Below, piece by piece: positions 2,266 through 32,771 of a stretch of 33,395 nt of DNA. The position numbers and the translations under genes were made by a program. Within the stretch, counting starts at the first letter, position 1; each line of letters begins with the position of its first letter. The notes beneath the pieces are model-generated. The model saw only the letters and a program-made list of their open reading frames with translations. It was not told where the DNA came from and did no database searches. Source of the DNA: a virus (taxonomy: Duplodnaviria; Caudoviricetes). Location of the stretch: the IMG/VR virus record IMGVR_UViG_3300020045_014702, positions 1 to 33,395 of that record; one strand, given 5' to 3'.

Positions 2266-3113
2266 TATGCGCAAATCATTAAAAATGCATTATAATAATC
2301 AATCAATCGTTGTAATTCTCCCGATTTTTGACCCTTTGTGTCTCCAAGAGTTTGTTGGTATTGTTGAATTCTGGCCTTAAAGATACCGCTTGTAGCTCCA
2401 CTTGACAACGATTGAGATAAGCCGTCGATTGAAATACTCTTCGAATTTAGTCCCCAACCTATTCCTGAGCCAGTTTCCCCAGCTTGACGATTTCCCATCA
2501 GCATATCGCTTAGAACTGCCAAAAAAGATATACTAGCAAGCATTCCAATAACATGAACAATGTCTGATGGAACTTTTTCAAATCCTGTGATGTATTCTTG
2601 GTTCCAGTAGCAAGGTATTTGTCCGTTTGATCCATAAGAAGCGAACCAATTCAGATTTGGCATTACTCCTGAGAAAATAATTGAGTTCTGACTTGTGACT
2701 GAATTGTATGTCGGAACCATATAGAGAATTCGACTGTACAGTTTGTTGTCGCTTGTCTTTCTAGCCTGTAGCCATGAGCGAGGATAGTCGACTTGTTTAG
2801 TTGTGCCAAGATAGCCTCTCAACGCGATTGGGTACACTACCGGATAAGTCGCTTTTGTGTAACTCCAGTGTACCCAATCGTCGTAGAAAAAGTCTTTCTG
2901 CTCTTTAATTATTTCTCTGTTTAGTCTTAAATTCAATAAATCCTCAACTTGTTCCTTAGCTGCACTTAGATAGTGTTCGTAGATCTCTGCTGGTATAAGT
3001 ACCCCGTCTTTTTCAAGGGGTAGACCAAACAAATACTTCTGCTTAAACTCCTCAACAGATAAGATCTGTCGAGTGCTCTTATCAGTGATTATACTAAGGG
3101 TTATTTGAGGCAT
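2265..3113 (-). CDS. Head-tail adaptor (neck) protein
   Basis: LSVEEFKQKYLFGLPL, Y..AAKEQVEDLL, YITGFEKVPSDI and SKSISIDGLSQS motifs of myovirus adaptor proteins; synteny after the capsid gene. Confidence 0.75.
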   Translation of the reverse strand: MPQITLSIITDKSTRQILSVEEFKQKYLFGLPLEKDGVLIPAEIYEHYLSAAKEQVEDLLNLRLNREIIKEQKDFFYDDWVHWSYTKATYPVVYPIALRGYLGTTKQVDYPRSWLQARKTSDNKLYSRILYMVPTYNSVTSQNSIIFSGVMPNLNWFASYGSNGQIPCYWNQEYITGFEKVPSDIVHVIGMLASISFLAVLSDMLMGNRQAGETGSGIGWGLNSKSISIDGLSQSLSSGATSGIFKARIQQYQQTLGDTKGQKSGELQRLIDYYNAFLMICA

Positions 3114-3688: not shown

Positions 3689-4702
3689 TTATTCCTTATA
3701 ATCCTTCCTATATAACCATTTATATCCAATAAAGTTTCGATCGTTATTCTGAATGTAGTAACGAATCGCTCCTTGTCGTCCAGTTTGCCCTAAAACCCAA
3801 TCTGATGCCTCCTTAGCCATTTTGAACTCTATACAGATTTTGTTGTTCGAATCTACAGCTACGATCTCCTTCCACCAGGTATTGACATATCCTTCCTTAG
3901 ACTGAGTTTCTCTCTTCGATTGCATTCTTTTATCGCATACTTCTTTTGAACCGAGTAGAGCGGTTCTTTTCGCTCTGTATTCCGGATTATCCCAATTTGC
4001 TTTCTGCTTGATTCTGTTTTTTTCGTTTCTCTCTGGCGTCTTCGCTACTTTTGCGAGATATTCAGGATCTTGCCAGTTGGCTTTAGATTTGATTGAGACT
4101 TTCGCTCTCTTCTCTGGTCGACCATTAATTTCTTTCCATTTTTGAGTGTAAGCGTCAGGATCTGCTTCTCTCTCTTGCTCTCTTTGTTTTTTAGATGCTG
4201 TTTTCATTTTTTCATGATGAGCTTCACTCCATACTTGCTCTATTCTTTTTTTATGCCACTCGGGTGTACGAATAGTGTTCTGTTTTTCGATATACCACTC
4301 TTGTTGCCATAGCCAGATAGCGTTATCTTTCATTTTTTCGAGAGCTTCAGGAGTATGTGGTCTTCCTTCTGATCTCCCAGCTACTGGACAAACATTATAA
4401 CCTAATTTAAGAAATCGATCGTCTTTGCCTTTCGTTAAGCAATATTCTTGCGAATAGAGAAGTGTATCGAGATAGTATTGTTCTCTTTCTAGTAATATGC
4501 TTAGTTCGCATTCTTCGATAATAGAAAACTCGAAAGCTTCTTCGCCGTATTTATTAAAAGAGTGTTGTAGATGAGTTGAGTGGTGAGAGTTTGATCGCAA
4601 ATACCAAAAATGTTGTGTTTTTCGTCTCTCAAAGTTGTCGCTTGATCCAATATAGATCTTATTTGTTGTGTTATTTTTTATTTGATAGATTCCACTATTC
4701 AT
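3689..4702 (-). CDS. Free-standing GIY-YIG homing endonuclease
   Basis: SGIYQIKN...KIYIGSS...RRKTQH, EREQYY and GYNV motifs; WxDPEY helical repeats; NUMOD1-like C-terminus. Confidence 0.92.
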   Translation of the reverse strand: MNSGIYQIKNNTTNKIYIGSSDNFERRKTQHFWYLRSNSHHSTHLQHSFNKYGEEAFEFSIIEECELSILLEREQYYLDTLLYSQEYCLTKGKDDRFLKLGYNVCPVAGRSEGRPHTPEALEKMKDNAIWLWQQEWYIEKQNTIRTPEWHKKRIEQVWSEAHHEKMKTASKKQREQEREADPDAYTQKWKEINGRPEKRAKVSIKSKANWQDPEYLAKVAKTPERNEKNRIKQKANWDNPEYRAKRTALLGSKEVCDKRMQSKRETQSKEGYVNTWWKEIVAVDSNNKICIEFKMAKEASDWVLGQTGRQGAIRYYIQNNDRNFIGYKWLYRKDYKE

Positions 4703-4790: not shown

Positions 4791-6260
4791 TTAAGCAGTA
4801 GTCAAAGTTTTGCCGACATTGATGTAACGCACCACTTTGCGTGGGGCATACAACTGGGGGGTCCCAAAACTGAAACAAATAAAGCGTCGACTCATCGATA
4901 AAACAGCTAAATCCAATTTCGAAATTGGAGCCAATTGTTTGAACGCTACAACTTCTTCATCAATCTGAGTCAAGAATGCTTGTTCAGTGTTTGGTAAGAA
5001 ATATCCAGCGTCGCGAATTTTACCAGCAGCTCCACCATTGAATCCAGCAGCAAGATTAGCAGCACCAACTTTGAAGATTGGATAAAATTCTAAACCTGCA
5101 TGAGTAGCAGCAGTAGTGATCTTCGTGCGATAAATCACGTAACCGTTAGTTACATTTGATCCGGCACCAGCAACAAAAGTCAAATCTACAGCGTAACCAG
5201 CAGCTAATGTGATTGGAGTAGCGTGGATAGCTAAGTTTGATTCACCATAACGGTTGATTGCAGATACTGCGTAGAAACAGTCACCAAATTCACCGGTTGC
5301 GTATTTCGACAAAGCATCAGCGGCCAAAGCAACTGTAGAGATAGTTGGAACAGAAGGAGCTTTCGTTGAGGTTGAAGGAGTAGCTGAATTTTTTGAAGGA
5401 TCAGCTTTCATGAATTTATCGCCCATCAAAGCGGCATCTCCCATAGTGGTTGAAATCGCTTTCGGAACAACTCCAATCTTACCTTCAAATCCGGTACCGT
5501 TTTGAATGATACGTTGAGTTTCGAAGTAATCCTGAGCTAAAGCCGATAGAACAGTTGTTGGAGCAGCTAAGTGAGAGATGGTTCCGTAGTTGTCGTCAAC
5601 CTGGATCGCACCCTTTTCAACATCCATTTGCTTCAAACTTTTCCCGCGCAAATCAACTACTGTGCCACTGTTGTAGTAAGCTTCGAAAGTTGGATACAAG
5701 AAATCTTGAGTTGCACCAATACTTGCATGTTGTTTGTAGATAGAGTTGAACTCCTGAGGAATAATGTCAGCGTCGCCTTTTGTCAAAGTTGTGTTAGCTA
5801 AACGCATGATCCACATCATTTTGTTTTCAACTTCCTTACGCATTGCGTCAACGTACGAACGTACCATTTGAGCTTGCATTGTTACTTCACCGGTAACCTG
5901 CATGTATTTTACCAACTCAGACCGACGGATGTATTTGCTGTCTTCTACATCAGAAAGCTCACCTTCGTCGTAGAAACCTCCACGTTGTGAACCGTAGCTT
6001 GATAATTGCAAGAATTCTTCAACAGTATTGTAAGCAGTAAGCTTGGGAATCGCGTTGAACAATTTGATATCGCTTGTGCGATATTCCAGTAATTTCAATG
6101 TTTTTTCAAGAGACTCTGCTTTCAGAGGTTCTTGGGTTAAACTTAACCCTGTGGTGTCTCTACCGGTAATTTGACCAGCAGACATTGCTTTTTGCAACTC
6201 CAATTGGCCTTCTTGTTCGGTTCCACCGAAGCCATCAACATAGTCATTTAATCCTACCAT
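4791..6260 (-). CDS. Major capsid protein (Herelleviridae-like)
   Basis: 489 aa. LQKAMSAG propeptide end, PLKAESLEKTLKLL, C-terminal LYAPRKVVRYINVG, biased codon usage; follows the prohead protease gene. Confidence 0.92.
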   Translation of the reverse strand: MVGLNDYVDGFGGTEQEGQLELQKAMSAGQITGRDTTGLSLTQEPLKAESLEKTLKLLEYRTSDIKLFNAIPKLTAYNTVEEFLQLSSYGSQRGGFYDEGELSDVEDSKYIRRSELVKYMQVTGEVTMQAQMVRSYVDAMRKEVENKMMWIMRLANTTLTKGDADIIPQEFNSIYKQHASIGATQDFLYPTFEAYYNSGTVVDLRGKSLKQMDVEKGAIQVDDNYGTISHLAAPTTVLSALAQDYFETQRIIQNGTGFEGKIGVVPKAISTTMGDAALMGDKFMKADPSKNSATPSTSTKAPSVPTISTVALAADALSKYATGEFGDCFYAVSAINRYGESNLAIHATPITLAAGYAVDLTFVAGAGSNVTNGYVIYRTKITTAATHAGLEFYPIFKVGAANLAAGFNGGAAGKIRDAGYFLPNTEQAFLTQIDEEVVAFKQLAPISKLDLAVLSMSRRFICFSFGTPQLYAPRKVVRYINVGKTLTTA

Positions 6261-6322: not shown

Positions 6323-8047
6323 TTACTTCACTAATGTGATACCCATTGCTCTTAATTTAGGAGCTAAGGCTGTATAGTCTGCCGATTTGCTGATTTCAAG
6401 ATCGGCTACTGCTTTTTCAAGTTGAGCGTCTTCTTTACCTTGTGATTTCAAAATTTCTACGTGACCAAAAATTCGATCACCTAAACGTTTTACGTCGCTT
6501 GCGTTGCTGATGCAATACATATCTTCGCTACCTTCTTCGTTTCCTTTTTCAAAGCGCTCAATTGATTGAACTGTACGTTTTGATTTAGGTGCTGCCGGAG
6601 TTTCTGCAAGTTTTTCGAAGTCATCTGAAAGATCATCAAAACCTTTTTGAAGAGTACTTAAACTCTCTTTTAGTTCAGTGTTTTCAGAAACTACTGATTT
6701 CAAAATCGCTCCAATTGCTCCAAAGTTTTGACCTAGAGTGTTTTGTAAACCTTTTACAAGATCAAGAACTGGATCAGGCTGTATTTCGAGCGTCATCATT
6801 TCTTCACCTTTGACGATCGGAACCGTTTCAGCAGCAATCGTGCCGCCGTTTTCTTTTAACGCTTCTGCTTGAGAAATACATGCTTGACAAGCTGTTTCCG
6901 CCATCGTTAGATCTACTCCACATGAAGCCATTGCTTTTACAACGTCTCCTTGAGCCATTCCGGAAGCCAATAAACCTTTCGCCATTGAGGTGCAAGCTTT
7001 TGCTTTTTTCACTTCTTCCGTTTCTTCCTCAGCTACTTCTTTACCGGAAGTTGCAGGTTCAGTTTTTTCTTCATCTTCTTCCTCGTCTTTTTCTTTAGCC
7101 TTGTTAGTTTCTTCGTTTTCTTCCTTGCCTTTTACAAGTCCATCGAGAATCTCGAAAGATTTCTGAAGAGTTTCTTCAGTTATTTTTTCACCTTTTACCA
7201 TATTGAAAAGTTTTTCGTTGACTGTTGATATAAAATTGAAAATTTCTTTTGCTTTGATTACGTCAGTTGTATACCGATCGTAGATTTGAATGTAAACTTC
7301 ACTTTTGTTTAACGATAACCCAACAGTGGGCTTTTCTTTATGTTCGACTGACTCAGGCATAGCAGGGCTCATCGCCACAGTATCCATGGCCTTCTCAGTT
7401 GTACCTTCTTTTTCGTTTTTTTCTTTCTCTTTTTTCTTTTCTTCGTCAGTTAATTCTTCATCTTCAACATAGAATTCATCAGACTGTCCTTTCACAATCG
7501 ACATCAAAGTATTTGGATTCTTTGGACTCTGTGTGATTGCTACTCCAGTGATACGAGCTTTTGTTACTTGCTTCCATAAATAGGGATCGAAGCTTGGGTT
7601 CTTAATTGTTTGTGCCTTATCTAGATATTCCGGTCCACACCCTCTTTCAGTAGCTTGTCCTTCGATCGAAAACCCCAATCTTCTGTTTGGAGAATACGTT
7701 TCAAGAGTTTCTGCTAACTCTGCTACTTCTTTGCCTTGAGCGTTTGGATAGAGAAAACCTTCAATGTAGAGATCTCTACCGTCATTGATGATCTTAGCTG
7801 CTGTAGGCTCTCCGCAAATTGCTTTTGCAGATTTAGTAGCTTGATGATTCCAATTTAAAAATCCAGTCTTCAAAAGTGGACTGAAATCAAATCCTGATGG
7901 AATCAACGTTTCCCCATCAGAATCTTCCGCTGCAGAAGAAGCTATTCCTTTTATTTTGGTAATAGCTTTCCCCTTGTTATCTAAACCTTTTTCAAAAGCT
8001 AGGGGTACGAAGAAATTAAATTTGTTGCTGTTAGTTGCTGTAGTCAT
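6323..8047 (-). CDS. Prohead protease fused to scaffold domain
   Basis: IKGIASSAAEDSDGE, FLNWNH, LGFSIEG and VAITQSPKNPNT protease motifs, then an acidic coiled-coil scaffold with many [FILMV]xK[GAS] sites. Confidence 0.88.
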   Translation of the reverse strand: MTTATNSNKFNFFVPLAFEKGLDNKGKAITKIKGIASSAAEDSDGETLIPSGFDFSPLLKTGFLNWNHQATKSAKAICGEPTAAKIINDGRDLYIEGFLYPNAQGKEVAELAETLETYSPNRRLGFSIEGQATERGCGPEYLDKAQTIKNPSFDPYLWKQVTKARITGVAITQSPKNPNTLMSIVKGQSDEFYVEDEELTDEEKKKEKEKNEKEGTTEKAMDTVAMSPAMPESVEHKEKPTVGLSLNKSEVYIQIYDRYTTDVIKAKEIFNFISTVNEKLFNMVKGEKITEETLQKSFEILDGLVKGKEENEETNKAKEKDEEEDEEKTEPATSGKEVAEEETEEVKKAKACTSMAKGLLASGMAQGDVVKAMASCGVDLTMAETACQACISQAEALKENGGTIAAETVPIVKGEEMMTLEIQPDPVLDLVKGLQNTLGQNFGAIGAILKSVVSENTELKESLSTLQKGFDDLSDDFEKLAETPAAPKSKRTVQSIERFEKGNEEGSEDMYCISNASDVKRLGDRIFGHVEILKSQGKEDAQLEKAVADLEISKSADYTALAPKLRAMGITLVK

Positions 8048-8054
8048 AGTTGTG

Positions 8055-8552
8055 TTAGTTTACTGATTCAGCCATTTCATTATCGAGAAGGCGAAGTGCA
8101 ATTTTATCGTCTCCATAAGAGTTGAGTTTATCGACCCATGCCTGCGTTTTGCTGAGCTCTTCAACTTGTTCTTTCAGGTATCTCATCGCTAACTCCAGTG
8201 TCATAAAGTCTCCTTCTGTATGAGCTGCTGTTGCTAAAGCTTTACATTGATCGGTCACTTCGATTTCGTGTTTCAGACTCAAAGCTACGATATTCGCCAA
8301 TCCCTTGTAATCGTTTTGAGGTTTCTCTAACGAAGGAGTAGTAGGTTTGATGTTTAAATCGAGTAGGTATTGATAAGCCCATTCTTTGTGTACGAGCTCT
8401 TCTTCACTGTACCTATACCATACTTTTGCAGCGCCGGAGAATCCGTGAAAGTCTAACCATACTGCCATCGCTTTGTATAGTCGTGAGCTCGCTTCTTCTT
8501 GCTCTATGCGGTAGTTCATTAATTGAACTATTTTATCGGAGATTATAGCCAT
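8055..8552 (-). CDS. Ferritin (non-heme Ftn type)
   Basis: 165 aa four-helix pattern with ferroxidase-like residues: EQEEASSRLY, EEELVH, KHEIEVT, EQVEE. Confidence 0.85.
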   Translation of the reverse strand: MAIISDKIVQLMNYRIEQEEASSRLYKAMAVWLDFHGFSGAAKVWYRYSEEELVHKEWAYQYLLDLNIKPTTPSLEKPQNDYKGLANIVALSLKHEIEVTDQCKALATAAHTEGDFMTLELAMRYLKEQVEELSKTQAWVDKLNSYGDDKIALRLLDNEMAESVN

Positions 8553-9811
8553 TTTGTATGATCTGTTTTAGTTTCTTTATCTTCGCTTTTTACTAACTTT
8601 CCGTTTTCAGTTACTGTCTCGAATCCTGGAGTACTTCCTGTGTCCATTTTTTCAACTTTATCGTTCTGTCTCTTATAGACAGGAATTTCGGTATATTTTA
8701 ATTTCTTATAAGCGATTAATCGATGATTACCGTCTAAAATTTTGTTGTTTTCGTCAAGAACGATGGGATGTAGTTTTGTTCCTGATTTGATTTTATCTAT
8801 GATTTTATCGATCATCGATAAATCTTCATCCATATCGTTTCGCTTATACCAAGCGTAGGTGAGTTTATTGTTGATTTCTTCTAACGGAAGAGTCTGTTGA
8901 ATAAAAGAATCTGATTCTTTGATAAAAGCGGAACCGTCTTCAGATGAAGAGAGACCTTTATTCTGAGCGACGATATCTTTCCCCGATATCGCTTTCTCAT
9001 TTGAGTCGCTTTTTTCTTCACTATAGATATAATTCCATTCTCCATTCTTAAATTCTTTCCTTATATATTTGTGAGATCCGCCTTTCACAATCTCCTCCAA
9101 TACTTCAGTATCGGTTCCTTTTGCAAGTTCGAGAGCTTGATCGAATCCTTCTCCTTTTTCGATATTACAGACTCTACTAAATTCTTCCGGTGTGATTGCG
9201 TCGTTATCAAAAGCTCTAGTCACTAATTCGTAAGCAGCGACTGCTTTATGGATCTCAATAGTTTTGAAGAATACTGACTCATCAATTTTACCTTCATCGA
9301 ACGACGTAAGATTGTTTTGCCATGAAGTATATAAATCCTCTCCTATCGGAGCTACTTCTGGAAGTGTAGGAACTGGAGAAAGCGGTAATTTTGCGAGCGT
9401 ATCTTTGAGATCGAGCAATAGTTCATAATCATCGAGATCTTTCGGTTCTACCCATTGAATTCGATAGTGTTCGTCATTATCAAGTAATACTGCTGTTTGA
9501 CTGTAAACGAATCCTTCGTAGTACAGACTAACGCTATCTTTGCGATCTACTTTATCAAGATAGAATAACGGTACAGCTTTGTAGCCAGTTTCTTCTTCAA
9601 GTTCTCTGCCTGCAGCGAAGATCGGTTCTTCTCCGTCTTCAATGTGTCCGCCTGGTAGACACCATTTACCTGGTGCAAAATCGTCTTGGTATGAACGATG
9701 AAGTAGGCATATTCTGCCTTTCTCATCTCTGATTACACAGTCTGCGTAGTGAGTCTTGTTCTTTTTGAGAGCAAGTAGTTGTCCAATTCTATCTAGTGTT
9801 TTTTTAAACAT
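8543..9811 (-). CDS. Nudix hydrolase fused to a ParB/Srx-like domain
   Basis: Nudix box GGHIEDGEEPIFAAGRELEEETG; C-terminal PIVLDENNKILDGNHRLIAYKKL ParB-N motif; IEKG, LAKG and IVKG sites in the linker. Confidence 0.85.
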   Translation of the reverse strand: MFKKTLDRIGQLLALKKNKTHYADCVIRDEKGRICLLHRSYQDDFAPGKWCLPGGHIEDGEEPIFAAGRELEEETGYKAVPLFYLDKVDRKDSVSLYYEGFVYSQTAVLLDNDEHYRIQWVEPKDLDDYELLLDLKDTLAKLPLSPVPTLPEVAPIGEDLYTSWQNNLTSFDEGKIDESVFFKTIEIHKAVAAYELVTRAFDNDAITPEEFSRVCNIEKGEGFDQALELAKGTDTEVLEEIVKGGSHKYIRKEFKNGEWNYIYSEEKSDSNEKAISGKDIVAQNKGLSSSEDGSAFIKESDSFIQQTLPLEEINNKLTYAWYKRNDMDEDLSMIDKIIDKIKSGTKLHPIVLDENNKILDGNHRLIAYKKLKYTEIPVYKRQNDKVEKMDTGSTPGFETVTENGKLVKSEDKETKTDHTKWL

Positions 9812-25228: not shown

Positions 25229-25552
25229 TCATACGAGGACTTGTGGTTTTATACCAAATGACCAAGGTTCCTGTTTGATTTTCGGCAGATTGGTTACAGA
25301 CTTCACTCTTTCACTGAGCTGAGGAACGATATCAACTTCTCTCCCTCGATCTTCTCGAGTTAACAGCTCTCCTCTAATGATAGTCTGGTTTTGAATGAAA
25401 GTGTCGTAGTCGTTACTAGAATTACCGCCTTGATTTATCCAAGAGCTCTTATCTACAACTGATGGAGACTTTTGGTTCGACTTGCTCTCGATACTGGTCG
25501 AACAGTTTGAGAGTGCTAAGCAGACGGTTAATAATAGGGTTGACTTTTTCAT
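25229..25552 (-). CDS. Putative lipoprotein
   Basis: MKKSTLLLTVCLALSNC signal peptide II-like N-terminus. Confidence 0.6.
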   Translation of the reverse strand: MKKSTLLLTVCLALSNCSTSIESKSNQKSPSVVDKSSWINQGGNSSNDYDTFIQNQTIIRGELLTREDRGREVDIVPQLSERVKSVTNLPKIKQEPWSFGIKPQVLV

Positions 25553-25764
25553 TCGATTTTTGTTTTAAAGTTACGAGATACTTTACGATTTATGAGTTGA
25601 TCTTCAAGTAAACTCTCAATCGATTTGATTAAGCCAAGAAGAATTCTTCCTCGATTCCATATCTCGTTATATTTTTAGTAGCAGTTCAATAGATTCTCTC
25701 ATCCTTGTCTCCTTCTGTTCAGTGAAGGTTAGATTGGCTCACTTTCGAGTTTCCATCTCTGCTA

Positions 25765-25947
25765 CTATTTCTTTAATCTTAAATGTCTTAGGCGATCTTT
25801 CTTAATCTCTGAGTTTGTTTTTATTTTGAAAGCTATAAAACTGATTAAATTTACCAATCCTGATAAAATGAAATAAATAATAAAGAGAGTTGCTGAGATG
25901 ATTCCAGCTAATACTAGATCGTTTAATCCTTGTTGAATACTTGTCAT
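25765..25947 (-). CDS. Small membrane protein
   Basis: Long hydrophobic stretch followed by a basic tail. Confidence 0.5.
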   Translation of the reverse strand: MTSIQQGLNDLVLAGIISATLFIIYFILSGLVNLISFIAFKIKTNSEIKKDRLRHLRLKK

Positions 25948-25977
25948 AGTGACTCGATTTTTAAATGTTAATGTGTT

Positions 25978-26095
25978 TTAGCGAGAAGTGCTTTCAGCTT
26001 TCACTTTTTGCTATTTGGGGCGGTTCTTATATTACCATGAACTATAATCTTTCGATTATGTTTTACTTACCTCCACCATGCAGTAAGCTCGCTAA
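25978..26095 (-). ncRNA. Unassigned structured RNA A (double pseudoknot)
   Basis: Closing stem TTAGCGAG/CTCGCTAA; hairpin CTTACT/GGTAAG whose loop GGTGG can pair with CCGCC; ATAATC-GAAA-GATTAT; AATAGCAA then AAGTG-AAAGCTGAAAG-CACTT. Confidence 0.65.
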
Positions 26096-26103
26096 TTTTA
26101 TTG

Positions 26104-26465
26104 TGGAGGTGGAGGGAGTCGAACCCTCGTCCAAACACGGAATCAGTATTGAAATTAATTACAGCTTCACTCATCCGTTCTGGAGATACTATCAAGTTTG
26201 AGAAACTTGTAAACTAGGCTGAAGGATACTTCCTCCAACTCCACCACCTCATTTTATCTAAACAAGGAAACTCTTCAAAAACTTCTGACTACTCTTATGC
26301 AGCAGCTTTCACTGATACACGTTGTGCAAAATTGATTACTAGTACTTCATCAATCATGCGTTGGATTTTGTTGTCAATTAATTTTGTGATCTTTTGAAAC
26401 GAGACCTTATCAAACTCGTGCTGTTCCAATACCGCTTCGACATGCTGTCAAAACCAAACACCCCC
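26104..26465 (-). ncRNA. ssrA: tmRNA
   Basis: 5' GGGGGTGTTTGGTTTTGACAG; 3' GAGGG-TTCGACT-CCCTC-CACCTCC-A with G3:U70 pair. Tag frame 26375-26295 encodes DNKIQRMIDEVLVINFAQRVSVKAAA*. CCA not encoded. Confidence 0.93.
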
Positions 26466-26489
26466 ATATTTCAATGAACTCTTTTAAAA

Positions 26490-26583
26490 TAAAAACAACG
26501 GTGAGGTTCTGAGCTTTTATCCTCCTTGCTATTCTGGGTAACCTTTTGAATTTTCCCACACACCCTTTAGGAAATTGTTTTTA
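26490..26583 (-). ncRNA. Unassigned structured RNA B (same topology as RNA A)
   Basis: Closing stem TAAAAACAA/TTGTTTTTA; hairpin TTTCCTA/TGGGAAA whose loop GGGTG can pair with TACCC; AATAGCAA then GAGG-ATAAAAGCTCAGAA-CCTC. Confidence 0.65.
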
Positions 26584-26584
26584 G

Positions 26585-26690
26585 AAAGGAGAAACGGATT
26601 CGAACCGTTGACCTCTGGTCTTACCCAGCGCTCTATCCGTTCGACAATTGCTTTAGTCATCGCACTGTCGGGTATCTGAGCTATCTCCCC
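26585..26690 (-). ncRNA. tRNA-like RNA with hairpin insertion in the D-loop and shrunken anticodon arm
   Basis: Acceptor GGGGAGA/TCTCCTT; D-stem GCTC/GAGC enclosing 44 nt; anticodon arm CTGG-GTAAGA-CCAG; intact T-arm AACGG-TTCGAAT-CCGTT. Confidence 0.75.
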
Positions 26691-26699
26691 TTATCTCTC

Positions 26700-26778
26700 G
26701 AGAGGAGTCTAATCCTCTCTTCACTTACAAATAAATTGATCGCCTCTCTAGTAAACCAATTTTAGACAATTCGTAAGC
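26700..26778 (-). ncRNA. Unassigned structured RNA C (bulge-loop kissing interaction)
   Basis: GCTTACGAAT/ATTTGTAAGT and AATTGGT/ATCAATT stems; bulged GTCTAA is complementary to the loop of GAGAGGA-TTAGAC-TCCTCTC. Confidence 0.6.
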
Positions 26779-26784
26779 AGTACG

Positions 26785-26858
26785 CTGGAATTGAGAGACT
26801 CGAACTCCCGACTTTCGACTTAACAGGCCGACGCTCTAACCAACTGAGCTAAATTCCA
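26785..26858 (-). tRNA. tRNA-Asn(GTT)
   Basis: TGGAATT-TA-GCTC-AGTTGGTTA-GAGC-G-TCGGC-CTGTTAA-GTCGA-AAGTC-GGGAG-TTCGAGT-CTCTC-AATTCCA-G; discriminator G; CCA not encoded. Confidence 0.95.
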
Positions 26859-26863
26859 AGGTT

Positions 26864-26917
26864 GTGACGATTCCCCTCTTCTACAGCATATTGGGATTGA
26901 TTTTGCCGTCTCGTCAC
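26864..26917 (-). ncRNA. Unassigned structured RNA D (single pseudoknot in a closing stem)
   Basis: GTGACGA/TCGTCAC closing stem; ACGGCA/TGCTGT crossing TCCC/GGGA. Confidence 0.6.
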
Positions 26918-26996
26918 TTTGCAGAGTTACATTTATCTACTACCAACTTAAAGAACTCCAAGATTATTCTGCCTAAGCTACATCTAATTGATTTGG

Positions 26997-27078
26997 AAGT
27001 GTTGTATTTTAAATATCAAACAAGTTATTCAGATTTCAGCTGAAACTGATGTTGTACTGATCTTGCGATCCTACACTT
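26997..27078 (-). ncRNA. Possible structured RNA at the 5' end of the RNA operon
   Basis: AAGTGT/ACACTT closing stem, GATC-GCAA-GATC GNRA hairpin, TCAG-TTTCAGCTGAAA-T-CTGA. Confidence 0.35.
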
Positions 27079-27100
27079 TTTATCGTCTCGTTTGACTTTG

Positions 27101-27143
27101 GAAAGATACTACCGTTTGATTCGATTTAGCAACAGTCGTCTGT
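27101..27143 (-). promoter_or_regulatory. Repeated phage promoter, class 2, heading the RNA operon
   Basis: ACAGACGACTGTTGCT identical to 17569-17584; TTG-N21-TATCTTTC. Confidence 0.6.
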
Positions 27144-27187
27144 TATTATTTTTCATTTATTTTCAACTACTCTTGAGAATCAGTTTG

Positions 27188-27820
27188 TTAGATATCGATA
27201 TAATCGTATTCTTTTTGGAAGTATTCGATTAGCTCCTTTATTTTGGGATCGATTACACCATCTACTATGAGATCAAACATCCTCTCTCCATACTCCTCAA
27301 TCAGTAGTAGGATCTTATTGTACCGTTTTGAATCGTGCTTTTGAGTGTAGAGTAGATCGCTTTCAAATGAATTCAGTATAATCATCTTCTCGATATCACC
27401 ACTCTCCCACGAATTATGGCAGGTTCGACAGAATAGATTGATGTTGTCTTCGTCTAACTCAAGATCCTTTCTCTGCTTTACTGAGAGGATGTGAGATTTA
27501 TCGAAACTGCTTCCTCCTACTCCACATCCCCAACAGTAGTAAACTCCATTATCAATGGCTTTTTGTTCAATTGATGCTTTGAGTTCATGTAGCTTCTTTT
27601 TTGTTTCAGCTTCGTTTGAGGTTTGTTGTTTGAGAGGTTTGAATTTTGCTCTGATCGTTCGTGGCACTTTAGCCTCTACTCTTTCAGAAGCTCTCTCTTT
27701 ATAGACTTGAGCTCTGCTCGCTCCATTATGAAGTCTTTCAAAGTTGCAATCTGAACACAACCACTTCGATCTATTTTCGATTGGTTTTGGTTTATTGCAT
27801 TTGCTGCAAGGCTCACTCAT
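27188..27820 (-). CDS. HNH nuclease with N-terminal Zn finger
   Basis: Start MSEPCSKC (TAATG overlap at 27820); CWGC...DKSHILSV...NINLFCRTCHNSW HNH core. Confidence 0.8.
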   Translation of the reverse strand: MSEPCSKCNKPKPIENRSKWLCSDCNFERLHNGASRAQVYKERASERVEAKVPRTIRAKFKPLKQQTSNEAETKKKLHELKASIEQKAIDNGVYYCWGCGVGGSSFDKSHILSVKQRKDLELDEDNINLFCRTCHNSWESGDIEKMIILNSFESDLLYTQKHDSKRYNKILLLIEEYGERMFDLIVDGVIDPKIKELIEYFQKEYDYIDI

Positions 27821-28074
27821 TACCAAGTAAATGTTGTAGGATTGGTCCAATCGATTTGAAAGAGTTGTTTGAACTCTTCATTGGCTTGCTTTGCTGTTCC
27901 TTTATAATAGATACGGAAATTCTTCCACTCTCTTTTCATTTTTGAAGCTATTTTGTATCCAATAAGATATTTACCTGGAATACCGTTAGATTTCGGTTTT
28001 ATTCCAATTAACTCCATTCTTCTTACGATTGGATTTATTTTGATTCGTCTCTTGCAACTTGTTCCTAATTTCAT
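27820..28074 (-). CDS. Hypothetical basic protein
   Basis: Operonic ORF. Confidence 0.6.
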   Translation of the reverse strand: MKLGTSCKRRIKINPIVRRMELIGIKPKSNGIPGKYLIGYKIASKMKREWKNFRIYYKGTAKQANEEFKQLFQIDWTNPTTFTW

Positions 28075-28076
28075 CT

Positions 28077-28334
28077 TTACTTCTTTTTAAACATTTCTTC
28101 GCTCCAACGATTCTTCCCGCTGTCTATCGATAATTCGTATGTATGTGTGAATTCGTCGTATTCTACGACTTTCGTTACTTTGCCACAGTATTCTCTCATT
28201 TCAGGAGAGAAACCCATTCCTACGCAAACGTAACCATTAGAACAAGCGTTAGATAGGTACCATTGTAAGGATAGGATTTGAACTTCACTTCCAATAGGAA
28301 GATTAATCCTCTGAGGAATCACTTTTGTACACAT
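28077..28334 (-). CDS. Hypothetical protein
   Basis: Operonic ORF with EMREYCGKVTKV...WSEEMF pattern. Confidence 0.6.
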   Translation of the reverse strand: MCTKVIPQRINLPIGSEVQILSLQWYLSNACSNGYVCVGMGFSPEMREYCGKVTKVVEYDEFTHTYELSIDSGKNRWSEEMFKKK

Positions 28335-29907: not shown

Positions 29908-30963
29908 TTAAACAAACATAAAGTCAGGACTGTCGTCAATTAATAATTCTCGTACAGCCATAACAAGTGTATCGACTGCTTCGTCGTGATTACCACTTGG
30001 GAAAGATCCTAACAAATCCAAGAAATGCTCTACGTACGGACCTTGAATTAGTCGAACTCGCCTTGATTCTAAGGTTGGAGCGATTGAGTGAGCTCTTGTT
30101 ACTTTATCTTTTTCAGGATTCTCAGCTTCAATCACATTGAGTGAAGTGACTGACCTAAGTTGTTGTACAATACTCTTCCCACTTGCTTTAGGTTCAATGA
30201 ATATTTTACTTAGATGAGTGTACTGATAGCCGTTAGTGTGAATTATGATGTTTTTACACAGTTCTGGAAATTCTAACCATTTTTCTGTGAAATCCAACAC
30301 ATAGAGGAAATTGTCTTGTACAAAACACGTTAAAATACCTGTTGGATCATTTTCTGTTTTAGCTGTGTACGCTGAATCGATAAAGAAGTGTATTGGACTC
30401 TGCTCCACCTTTCTCAAAATCATTTCCGGTAATAAGATATCGAACCATGTCCGTTTAATAATTCCTCCCTCATCAGGAGATGGTCGCTGTTCGTATTGTC
30501 CAGTATAACCTCTCAACCCAAGTGTCTTTCTAAACCCACTCAAGATCATTGCTGAGAGTCGAGTAGGATCCAATAGTCCATTTACGTATTTTGTTTTTAA
30601 TTCAATAGGTTTGACTATATCGCTCGTCTCTGCTGGTAGACATATGTGTCTGTACTGTTCCGGATTCTGCTCTAAGAGAAACCCAGTCAGATCATTCTCA
30701 TGTAGTCGTTGCATGATGATGATTCTTATTCCAAGGTTGATGGGAGTGAGTCGATTGTACAGTGCTCGAGTGTAGTATTGAATTACGGCTGTACGACTAA
30801 GCTCACTCTCTGATGTCTTGGGGTTTTGAGGATCGTCGACTATACAATTATGAACTAAAACTCCATCGATGTAGTAATTGTTGTTATCTTTGACCTCTAA
30901 ATTGTATACTTCAAGATCTTTCACTTCTTCAAAGGAGATAGATCGTATTTGTTCACTTTTCAT
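29908..30963 (-). CDS. terL: Terminase large subunit, C-terminal part, preceded by split intein C-fragment
   Basis: After the 39-aa IntC: CIVDDPQ (Walker B), IIMQRLHENDLTG, GQYEQRP, IDSAY, IEPKASG and HDEAVD nuclease motifs. Confidence 0.93.
   Translation of the reverse strand: MKSEQIRSISFEEVKDLEVYNLEVKDNNNYYIDGVLVHNCIVDDPQNPKTSESELSRTAVIQYYTRALYNRLTPINLGIRIIIMQRLHENDLTGFLLEQNPEQYRHICLPAETSDIVKPIELKTKYVNGLLDPTRLSAMILSGFRKTLGLRGYTGQYEQRPSPDEGGIIKRTWFDILLPEMILRKVEQSPIHFFIDSAYTAKTENDPTGILTCFVQDNFLYVLDFTEKWLEFPELCKNIIIHTNGYQYTHLSKIFIEPKASGKSIVQQLRSVTSLNVIEAENPEKDKVTRAHSIAPTLESRRVRLIQGPYVEHFLDLLGSFPSGNHDEAVDTLVMAVRELLIDDSPDFMFV
30847..30963 (-). mobile_element. Split intein C-fragment (39 aa)
   Basis: MKSEQIRSISFEEVKDLEVYNLEVKDNNNYYIDGVLVHN followed by Cys+1: blocks F (VYNLEV) and G (VHN/C). 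Confidence 0.93.
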
Positions 30964-31897
30964 TATGGAATTTCTTTATGTGTCCAGGTAATCGACATAT
31001 TTGAAAGCTTTTATTGCAATAGGGACAGATAGTTCTCGGTCGATTCAAACTTCGTTCACTTTGTAATTGCTTTAATCTTTCTCCCTCACTACCTTCGTAA
31101 CGATCTTTCATTGTTTTGGAATTCTTCTCAGCTATGTTAGCTTTATACTGAGGATCACTCCATCTTTCTCGATTTCTCTCTGAAGCTTTAATGTGCTCTT
31201 CTTCTTTGCTCCACTTCACTTCATTCATCTTCTTTCCTGAGTCTATTGGACTGGTTTTAATTCCCTTTTTCAATAAAGATCTCTCTTTCTTTTTATCCTC
31301 AGTCCAATAGTTCTGAAATCGTTCACTAGTTTGCTTTCGTCGCTCTTCAGTCCAACTCTCGCTTCTTCTTGTCGAGATAGATTTTCTTTGCTCAATTGTT
31401 AGATTAGACCAGAATAGTTTTCTCTTTCTTGAAGAGGTTTCTTTTTGCTCAGTAGTTCGATTCGCTCTACCTATTGCACTATTTCGTAAACGTTTCTCAG
31501 CGATATGTTCTTTTCGGTCTGGATCGTTTAGAGCTTCTTGAATAGCTAATCTTCTCTTATCATAGTCTCTCGCCCAAGATTCTTTATTCTGTACACTTGA
31601 TCTTTGCGATCGAGCTTCTTTATCTTGATACAATTTCCACCACTCACCGTCCTCTCCTCCTTCTGAGAGATTGTAACCAATTCCTGGAATGTTGGCTTGT
31701 AACTTTTTAATCCACTCTCTTTCTAAATCTTTACTTTCTTGTAAAATTTCTTTTAGAAAGTTCTTTTTACCGTTTTTAGCTACACTTTGCTTTATTAATT
31801 TACCACTACCCCAATAGCGATCGAAATCTTGTTTTGTTCGACCAACGTAGAATAAACCGTTTAATTTATTGGTTATTTTGTAGATTTTATACTCCAT
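30953..31897 (-). CDS. Free-standing GIY-YIG (Seg-like) homing endonuclease between the terL halves
   Basis: YKIYKITNKLNGLFYVGRT, YWGSG, NFLKEIL, LEREWI and GYNL motifs; helical W-repeats; C-terminal CPYC...H...H Zn finger. Confidence 0.9.
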   Translation of the reverse strand: MEYKIYKITNKLNGLFYVGRTKQDFDRYWGSGKLIKQSVAKNGKKNFLKEILQESKDLEREWIKKLQANIPGIGYNLSEGGEDGEWWKLYQDKEARSQRSSVQNKESWARDYDKRRLAIQEALNDPDRKEHIAEKRLRNSAIGRANRTTEQKETSSRKRKLFWSNLTIEQRKSISTRRSESWTEERRKQTSERFQNYWTEDKKKERSLLKKGIKTSPIDSGKKMNEVKWSKEEEHIKASERNRERWSDPQYKANIAEKNSKTMKDRYEGSEGERLKQLQSERSLNRPRTICPYCNKSFQICRLPGHIKKFHNEK

Positions 31898-31934
31898 GTA
31901 ACTATTTGTTGATGAGTTATAAAAGTATGACTTT

Positions 31935-32228
31935 TTAATCTTTCAGTAAAACGTTATCAGTTATTAGAAGGTCTTTAGCTTGAAGCCAACCTCGGTTAGT
32001 AGTGTAGATTGGGTGCTCTTCTGTGCAGATTATTTTTCTTGTCTCTGTCTCGATAACATACAGTCGACCAGTGTAGTTTGATTTCAAGTAGTGTGTGATT
32101 GGTTTGAGTTCTACATTTTTCTCCTCTTCGTTGTAAGAATCAATCAGTACATCTAATTGTCTTTCTACAACATCAGCTATATCGAGCTCTCCTTCGCTTG
32201 TAGAAATCATCTGCCCTTTGGGAAAGCA
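31935..32228 (-). mobile_element. Split intein N-fragment (97 aa)
   Basis: CFPKGQMIST (block A), ICTEEHPIYT (block B TxxH), RGWLQAKDL, then stop. Confidence 0.93.
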
Positions 32229-32771
32229 AACTGTACCCTTGTGACCAGTAATGTTCGATCCGGTCGTCTTAGATAGTCTAAAACCACCCTTGTCGTTCAT
32301 AAAGTAACTCTTACTGTCAGCGTCGGACCGTATTTGATACAAGTGTCCAAACAACTCTTGATACTCGTCGCTCTTGATTATATCCTTTGAGTATTGGGCG
32401 TTTAGAAGCGATAAGTCTTCGTCGAACGAGATAGAGATCATCGGTAGCGACGGTTGCTTTATCCACATCCATGCTAGGAGCGACACTGACGTGATGAGCG
32501 ACTTGGAAGTACGTGGGGGGATGTTAACAATTAGGTCGGTAGTCCTTTCCTCTTTTCTAATGATTCTCTCAATCTCAACTTGGTATAAATCACATAGATA
32601 GTGAATATGAAAGGTGTCCTCAAACTTCTCGTTAGGGAACAAAATTAAGAAGCTCCAAACGAAAAATTCGTAGTACGATTCGGTGAAGATTTGTCGTTTT
32701 AACTCGAGCTCGAGTTCTCTGTCGACTAGAGAATAATTTTTATCTGACATTGTTTTCTGGAATTCTACCAA
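31935..32771 (-). CDS. terL: Terminase large subunit, N-terminal ATPase part, fused to split intein N-fragment
   Basis: LIVNIPPRTSKS Walker A and GSNITGHKG. Start is TTG 32771 or ATG 32750. Confidence 0.92.
   Translation of the reverse strand: MVEFQKTMSDKNYSLVDRELELELKRQIFTESYYEFFVWSFLILFPNEKFEDTFHIHYLCDLYQVEIERIIRKEERTTDLIVNIPPRTSKSLITSVSLLAWMWIKQPSLPMISISFDEDLSLLNAQYSKDIIKSDEYQELFGHLYQIRSDADSKSYFMNDKGGFRLSKTTGSNITGHKGTVCFPKGQMISTSEGELDIADVVERQLDVLIDSYNEEEKNVELKPITHYLKSNYTGRLYVIETETRKIICTEEHPIYTTNRGWLQAKDLLITDNVLLKD

Follow-up and report, generated by a model that had tools for sequence, protein, structure and literature searches.

Two candidate small RNAs with a shared predicted pseudoknot architecture in a phage tRNA-tmRNA cluster

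We describe two non-coding segments of a phage tRNA-tmRNA cluster, RNA A and RNA B, that probably form one RNA family with a shared, selected fold. They are probably a motif of a known kind, the accessory small RNAs of phage tRNA clusters, whose jobs have been open since T4 RNA C and RNA D. Our favoured account, to which we assign a probability of about 0.35, is that A and B are one new small RNA motif derived from the tRNA-tmRNA precursor and putatively acting in trans on a host protein. What sets the pair apart is a compact fold that appears twice in one genome with swapped stems around a fixed core, a claim that is fragile with two members; if it is true, finding a new class of ribozymes, or a decoy RNA aimed at a defence factor of Bacteroidota, would in either case count as a real discovery.

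The RNA cluster and the predicted architecture

The window, by which we mean the whole 33,395-nt stretch of DNA analysed, is a linear virus record with an estimated completeness of 33% that carries capsid, portal, terminase, helicase and homing-endonuclease genes on its minus strand. Its nearest isolate is Chryseobacterium phage MA9V-3 (capsid protein identity 71%), and its capsid protein shares 38% identity with those of Bacteroides DAC phages; from these identities we infer a Bacteroidota host. Elsewhere on the minus strand, the terminase gene (29908-32771) is split into two frames around a homing-endonuclease frame (30953-31897), likely by an intron for which Rfam gave no match at gathering score, and listed with it is 3689-4702 (minus strand), the related endonuclease being the gene after the capsid gene. 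Among the head genes, 8543-9811 (minus strand) encodes a 422-aa protein that has a NUDIX domain at its N terminus and matches portal proteins and nucleases weakly.

The cluster is non-coding and read on the minus strand in the order tRNA-Asn, hairpins, tRNA-like gene, A, tmRNA and B (Table 1); our letters A and B may be swapped relative to those of an earlier note on this DNA. The tmRNA is ordinary and occupies the middle and most of the span 25978-26583. The tRNA-like gene, which does not encode CCA, has a D-loop hairpin of about 35 nt and travels with A; no full-length relative of it was found among the phage isolates or loci compared. Several neighbouring minus-strand stretches also look structured. 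Downstream of B, 25675-25767 is a closed-stem RNA (folding z -4.26, 82% identity in the related L002 phage described below, no Rfam match) that has better support as a structured RNA than A. Following tRNA-Asn, 26695-26782 contains long hairpins (z -3.18), and at 26860-26920 a closed stem encloses an inner hairpin, the loop of which might base-pair to a G-run immediately ahead of tRNA-Asn; one contig of run X1 spans both of these stretches and differs at 8 positions across 26692-26917. Upstream of tRNA-Asn, the non-coding stretch 26918-27153, which is 73% identical in L002 and has two conserved blocks, probably represents further small RNAs or the leader of the cluster.

Table 1. Features of the cluster and predicted helices of RNA A and RNA B (window positions)
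Feature	Position	Strand	Remarks
tRNA-Asn(GUU)	26784..26858	-	same cluster, upstream
tRNA-like gene	26584..26690	-	long D-loop hairpin insert, 6-nt anticodon loop; absent together with A in relatives
RNA A	26490..26583	-	predicted closed three-armed RNA (P1/P2/P3) with loop pseudoknots T1 and T2; nothing in Rfam at E <= 10
RNA A core words	within 26490..26583	-	AAUAGCAA (26533-26526) and AAAGCU..GAA
A P1	26582-26574/26499-26491	-	9 bp, closing stem
A P2	26573-26568/26558-26553	-	6 bp
A T1	26565-26561/26540-26536	-	GGGUG with UACCC
A P3	26524-26521/26506-26503	-	
A T2	26530-26528/26514-26512	-	AGC with GCU
One-piece tmRNA gene	26101..26465	-	tag DNKIQRMIDEVLVINFAQRVSVKAAA; Rfam 85.7 bits; between A and B
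RNA B	25978..26097	-	architecture predicted as in A plus an extra hairpin; Rfam overlaps at chance level only
RNA B core word AAUAGCAA	26015-26008	-	
B P1	26095-26088/25985-25978	-	8 bp
B P2	26087-26083/26070-26066	-	
B T1	26077-26073/26023-26019	-	GGUGG with CCGCC
B extra hairpin	26059-26044	-	GAAA hairpin, specific to B
B P3	26006-26002/25990-25986	-	
B T2	26012-26010/25998-25996	-	

Both RNAs contain, on the minus strand, the elements that the earlier note had read from the letters, namely a closing stem (P1), a 5' hairpin (P2) with a loop that can pair with a downstream C-rich tract (T1), a 3' hairpin (P3) with a loop that can pair with AGC (T2), and the shared words; G-U pairs in P1, P2 and T1 fit that strand. 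Its observation that each RNA starts within 10 nt of a tRNA-like 3' end also holds, as P1 of A begins 3 nt past the acceptor stem of the tRNA-like gene and P1 of B begins 6 nt past the tmRNA end (26101). A possible further 3-bp helix in A (26543-26541 with 26502-26500) would link the segment preceding the C-rich tract with the one that follows P3, at a cost of 0.4 kcal/mol in A and 5.3 kcal/mol in B, and because of the latter cost it is doubtful in B. An alternative partner strand for P2 of B would move a 36-nt insert into the loop and leave a linker close in length to that of A.

Nested folding, a model without pseudoknots, gives P2 a pair probability of 0.10-0.12 in A and 0.34-0.37 in B. The corresponding z scores are +0.49 for A and -1.51 for B, with -2.59 for the opposite strand of B, so that A folds no better than its shuffles and B modestly.

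Likeness of A and B against chance

The rival reading that survives best is chance: A and B would be unrelated spacers or separately structured RNAs, and their likeness a coincidence arising from A-rich sequence. We regard this as quite possible. The sequence likeness of the two RNAs taken alone is at chance level (local alignment P = 0.25, shared 8-mer P = 0.29, from 5000 shuffled pairs). A covariance model built from A alone did not recover B in the window at E <= 10; on 641 nt it gave B 4.0 bits (E 3.1) with P2 in a different register. These results, the folding z of A, the homologue searches reported below and the several spacers of the cluster from which a reader could have picked a pair all favour coincidence, and they do not bear out the implication of the earlier note that the two RNAs resemble each other clearly beyond chance.

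The shared architecture fares better. We compared A and B in three descriptor-free tests, in which an algorithm picks the best shared helix set around any shared word within natural boundaries, and in all three the helices of Table 1 came out as the best common set. The first test used helices of at least 4 bp, hence T2 could not be listed; its observed score was reached by 18 of 1500 null pairs, and natural trailers scored as high in 5 of 54 cases against A and 0 of 54 against B. With tangled helix sets admitted, the null reached the score in 475 of 14785 pairs for structure and 930 of 14785 for structure plus words, and several natural trailers equalled it. The loose tests thus leave chance P at 0.01-0.06 with natural trailers as good. 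Against coincidence stands a constrained test, devised after the first two, that demands the closing stem, the hairpins and the loop pseudoknots: 10 of 4502 shuffled pairs reached its score and none of the 4502 its structure part, while natural tRNA trailers did so in 2 of 96 cases for each RNA. Both this test and the descriptors were devised once A and B had been seen. Depending on the test, the five-helix architecture common to A and B is moderately significant (P 0.002-0.06).

Descriptor searches also count against coincidence. None of 3000 shuffles of each RNA fits a descriptor built around A and B, a post hoc figure. In the window, a sequence-blind descriptor picks out A and B and nothing else, and 691 kb from other phages contains a single match. 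Across 2.44 Mb from related phages (both strands) it finds 12 core matches, five with a closing stem of at least 6 bp, and the closing stem and the motif occur together only in A and B. The descriptor is rare in AT-rich phage DNA; in GC-rich DNA it is unspecific, with at least 1796 core matches in 477 loci. Natural sites that contain both words had the core in 0 of 228 and 0 of 30 cases (0 of 258 in total).

The earlier note had taken stems that differ while still pairing to amount to internal covariation. A pair of RNAs with stems that defy alignment at the sequence level does not demonstrate it. Three of the five T1 pairs differ between A and B, under a structure-assuming alignment only, and T2 (AGC/GCU) never varies and therefore gives no evidence of its own pairing; covariation is unproven on both counts. 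The proposal of a single RNA family is made likelier by the three comparisons, the rarity of the architecture and the loss of A and B as units in relatives.

Relatives, homologues and candidate functions

One close phage is present in three assemblies (L002, L003 and L243), with 94% capsid and 89% helicase identity. The L002 phage keeps the tmRNA and its flanks, lacks 26918-26489 and hence A, and has a small hairpin in the slot of B. Contigs of runs X1 and X3 keep tRNA-Asn and skip 26481-26691, which corresponds within 10 nt to the tRNA-like gene plus A, and in run X3 20 other letters replace 25973-26101. The breakpoints in relatives thus lie about 10 nt or less from the predicted RNA ends. 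A and B are each gained or lost as a whole, with boundaries that coincide with the closing stems, and their absence from close relatives with breakpoints near the predicted ends marks them as accessory units. That these breakpoints track the closing stems is a further point against coincidence. We discounted an apparent joint in run X2 between tRNA-Asn and the first 23 nt of A, one side of which is shorter than 30 letters; four runs searched with A came back blank. Neither A nor B is covered by RNA reads, and none of the runs, which are represented by contigs of relatives, contains them; a gap in contig cover over A and B does not prove that they are missing.

Permuted tmRNAs occur in MA9V-3 (L180, 22766-23124) and in the relative G002 (L492, 339-689), and the window phage and L002 have one-piece tmRNAs, so that both forms exist in one phage group. 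By eye, the slot after the tmRNA contains a tRNA-like RNA with an expanded anticodon arm in two related phages (L485, about 2750-2880, minus strand; L491, about 5450-5590, plus strand). A spacer after tRNA-Ile in another relative (L481, 7086-7180, plus strand) contains a word that may resemble RNase P conserved region I. In L002, a 2.7-kb insert (6660-9340) separates the HNH gene from the RNA cluster, with a 69-base repeat frame that looks by eye like a leucine-rich repeat protein.

Searches for a third member found none in viral, genome, phage-isolate or related-phage collections, and the homologues beyond this genome on which the earlier note had let the family stand or fall were absent from all collections searched. 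Motif patterns gave 120 loci in 23 of 64 parts of the viral contigs, 52 loci in the entire viral contig collection and 56 matches in genome contigs, none of them a homologue; the 3 matches of a further viral-contig scan all lay within other sequence. Among 401 genomes from the phylum of a Flavobacteriaceae genome, 22 matched, with comparable scatter in controls and none structured. BLAST against 50,697 phage records returned 2 weak matches for A and 7 for B, and the three inspected lie in coding frames. No homologue of A or B was found in 33 viral loci with a Bacteroidota-type tmRNA end, in three annotated phages or in 35 same-group phage records found via the capsid protein, and the A-only model had no match in the window or in 13 cluster loci. 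A metagenome scan keyed on a tmRNA word, not on the A/B core, recovered 1 true relative in 118 loci. Rfam gave 10 matches at E <= 10 over 25500-27300, none meaningful on A or B. We found no description of the motif in the literature; according to the available sections of PMC10690425, that study drew 8495 candidate RNAs from IMG/VR in families of at least 3 unique sequences, and its candidates could still include the motif.

In the account that we favour, A and B are accessory non-coding segments that likely take the same closed, doubly pseudoknotted shape. They would be co-transcribed with their neighbours in one precursor, as suggested by the common strand, gaps of less than 30 nt and the lack of an internal promoter signal: the Bacteroidota -7 promoter word is absent from 25400-28200, and sigma-70-like sites are at chance level only. 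Host tRNA-maturing nucleases would release them, with 3' trimming of the upstream tRNA-like RNA freeing the 5' end and an RNase P cut at the tmRNA freeing the 3' end of A. Pairing of the 5' and 3' ends in P1 may then confer stability and protection, the J2/3 strand would pair with both hairpin loops and hold P2 and P3 side by side, and the invariant A-rich bases around T2 (and P3) would form a candidate binding surface with which A and B could bind and occupy a host protein in trans. We favour a trans role because A lies upstream of an RNA gene and so lacks a reading frame that it could control, and because terminator-like sites are absent from both RNAs. The patchy presence of A and B suits a counter-defence or host-adaptation role, and a partner that is a host defence or RNA-turnover factor would suit it in turn.

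A role in cis is a credible but unlikely alternative. Here A and B would be 3' trailers that time or protect the maturation of the upstream tRNA-like RNA, and in a variant for B the G-rich loop would invade the tmRNA acceptor stem until T1 forms. Both RNAs do start at a tRNA-like 3' end, and relatives keep a small hairpin in the slot of B. Eight bases of the G-rich P2 loop of B can pair with the 3' end of the tmRNA (reached in 1 of 400 shuffles), and nested folding of the tmRNA together with B drops the acceptor-stem probability to 0.17; this complementarity gives the G-rich loop another explanation and speaks for B acting in cis, or for that loop having arisen separately. The complement in A, however, is not significant (46 of 400) and is located elsewhere in the fold. 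A trailer would also have no need of an invariant loop core, and the relatives manage without A and B.

Bolder still is the idea that with A and B we have the founding pair of a new catalytic or ligand-binding class, a three-way junction in which the joining strand locks both hairpin loops, which we consider doubtful. The same applies to its boldest form, a self-cleaving class plugged behind tRNA-like genes by Bacteroidota phages. A new class of small self-cleaving ribozyme cutting the tRNA-tmRNA precursor, theta-like in its working and different in fold, appears improbable. The compact double pseudoknot, free stems and few invariant core bases resemble small ribozymes, as do the divergent copies in one genome, the patchy presence and the tRNA-adjacent position, and the available sections of PMC10879173 place theta ribozymes at phage tRNA 3' ends in phages with Bacteroidota and Bacillota hosts. 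Against this, all known classes fail to match, and the conserved core is 50-85 nt away from the end of the tRNA and enclosed by the closing stem, where a cut would leave the tRNA untrimmed. New ribozyme classes are rare among new motifs.

It is very improbable that A and B are trans-acting aptamers sequestering a small signal of the host, for example a second-messenger nucleotide used in defence against phages. Tied-loop three-way junctions, like stacked pseudoknots that contain A-rich strands, typically serve as ligand pockets, and the predicted fold resembles them; without an expression platform any such binding would be in trans; however, no riboswitch family in Rfam matches A or B, and we know of no natural phage example of a signal-soaking trans aptamer. 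Nor is a riboswitch likely, since what follows A is an RNA gene, the tmRNA, and both RNAs lack a platform: there is no terminator-like site in A or B, nor an Rfam riboswitch match. A 60-aa frame starts 31 nt past the end of B and does not overlap it. Of the core functions proposed in the earlier note (protein binding, ligand binding or catalysis), ligand sensing in cis is thus opposed by the context, and catalysis as a known ribozyme class did not survive the tests.

That A and B are decayed pieces of tmRNA, derived either from pseudoknot 1 together with the resume region or from the coding part of a permuted form, is hardly credible: the order of hairpin, tract and A-rich strand does recall tmRNA pseudoknot 1, in which a G-rich hairpin loop and a C-rich tract are followed by an A-rich strand, and relatives have permuted tmRNAs, but the weak tmRNA_permuted match over B (E 0.08) rests on the T arm of the real tmRNA, A and B align with 28 phage tmRNAs no better than expected by chance (best 1 of 100 shuffles in 56 tests) and no shared tag frame was found.

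Comparison with known RNA systems

The closest parallels in context are the theta ribozymes, minimal HDV-like ribozymes that, in the available sections of PMC10879173, are likewise small, doubly pseudoknotted and located directly 3' of phage tRNAs, with Bacteroidota among the hosts. A and B share that position, lying 3 nt and 6 nt after the upstream RNA. Theta cleaves at G1 at the tRNA end (PMC10879173) and has the HDV helix order and a catalytic C in J4/2, whereas A and B have a 5'-3' closing stem. In place of the theta cleavage-site G1, A/U-rich bases follow both tRNA-like ends, and then the closing stem. A descriptor for the HDV-like order P1-P2-P3-P1.1-P4 with the J4/2 C found no parse in A or B, and Rfam gave no HDV-family match at E <= 10.

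Other small ribozymes offer partial likenesses in fold. Like A and B, twister has two pseudoknots, and in pistol, again like A and B, a hairpin loop pairs with a tract and another hairpin comes next; in both, few bases are invariant. Unlike both, A and B draw their pseudoknot strands from two separate hairpin loops. Twister, pistol, hatchet, twister-sister and hammerhead are not among the 10 Rfam matches at E <= 10 in 25500-27300, and the core words of hammerhead, twister and pistol are absent from A and B. Likenesses to CsrA sites, T-boxes, fluoride riboswitches and RNase P were considered and dropped, having no Rfam match.

Phage T4 provides a second parallel in context, with a tRNA cluster that ends in two small, stable RNAs whose function is unknown, as stated in the available sections of PMC9697503. 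These, RNA C and RNA D (rnaC and rnaD), are a pair of 120-140 nt at the tRNA cluster's 3' end, close to a nuclease gene. The end of RNA C forms a T-arm-like hairpin that A and B lack, and RNA C and RNA D are expressed, whereas A and B are known here from sequence alone. No words or fold common to rnaC/rnaD and A/B were found, and a descriptor scan of the T4 comparison locus (L176) gave no match.

Phages use pseudoknotted ToxI-type RNAs as decoys. Type III antitoxin RNAs have one pseudoknot in 35-55 nt, whereas A and B have two in a closed unit of 95-120 nt. The tandem repeats of type III antitoxins (ToxI, CptI, TenpI) do not occur over A or B; PADLOC flagged 0 of 9 adjacent proteins as toxin or defence neighbours, and no toxin family appears in their Pfam matches. 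Theta ribozymes and T4 RNA C and RNA D therefore resemble A and B in context and not in fold, and the model for our favoured reading of A and B as trans-acting RNAs is the pseudoknotted, protein-binding RNA of type III toxin-antitoxin systems and of phage pseudo-ToxI decoys.
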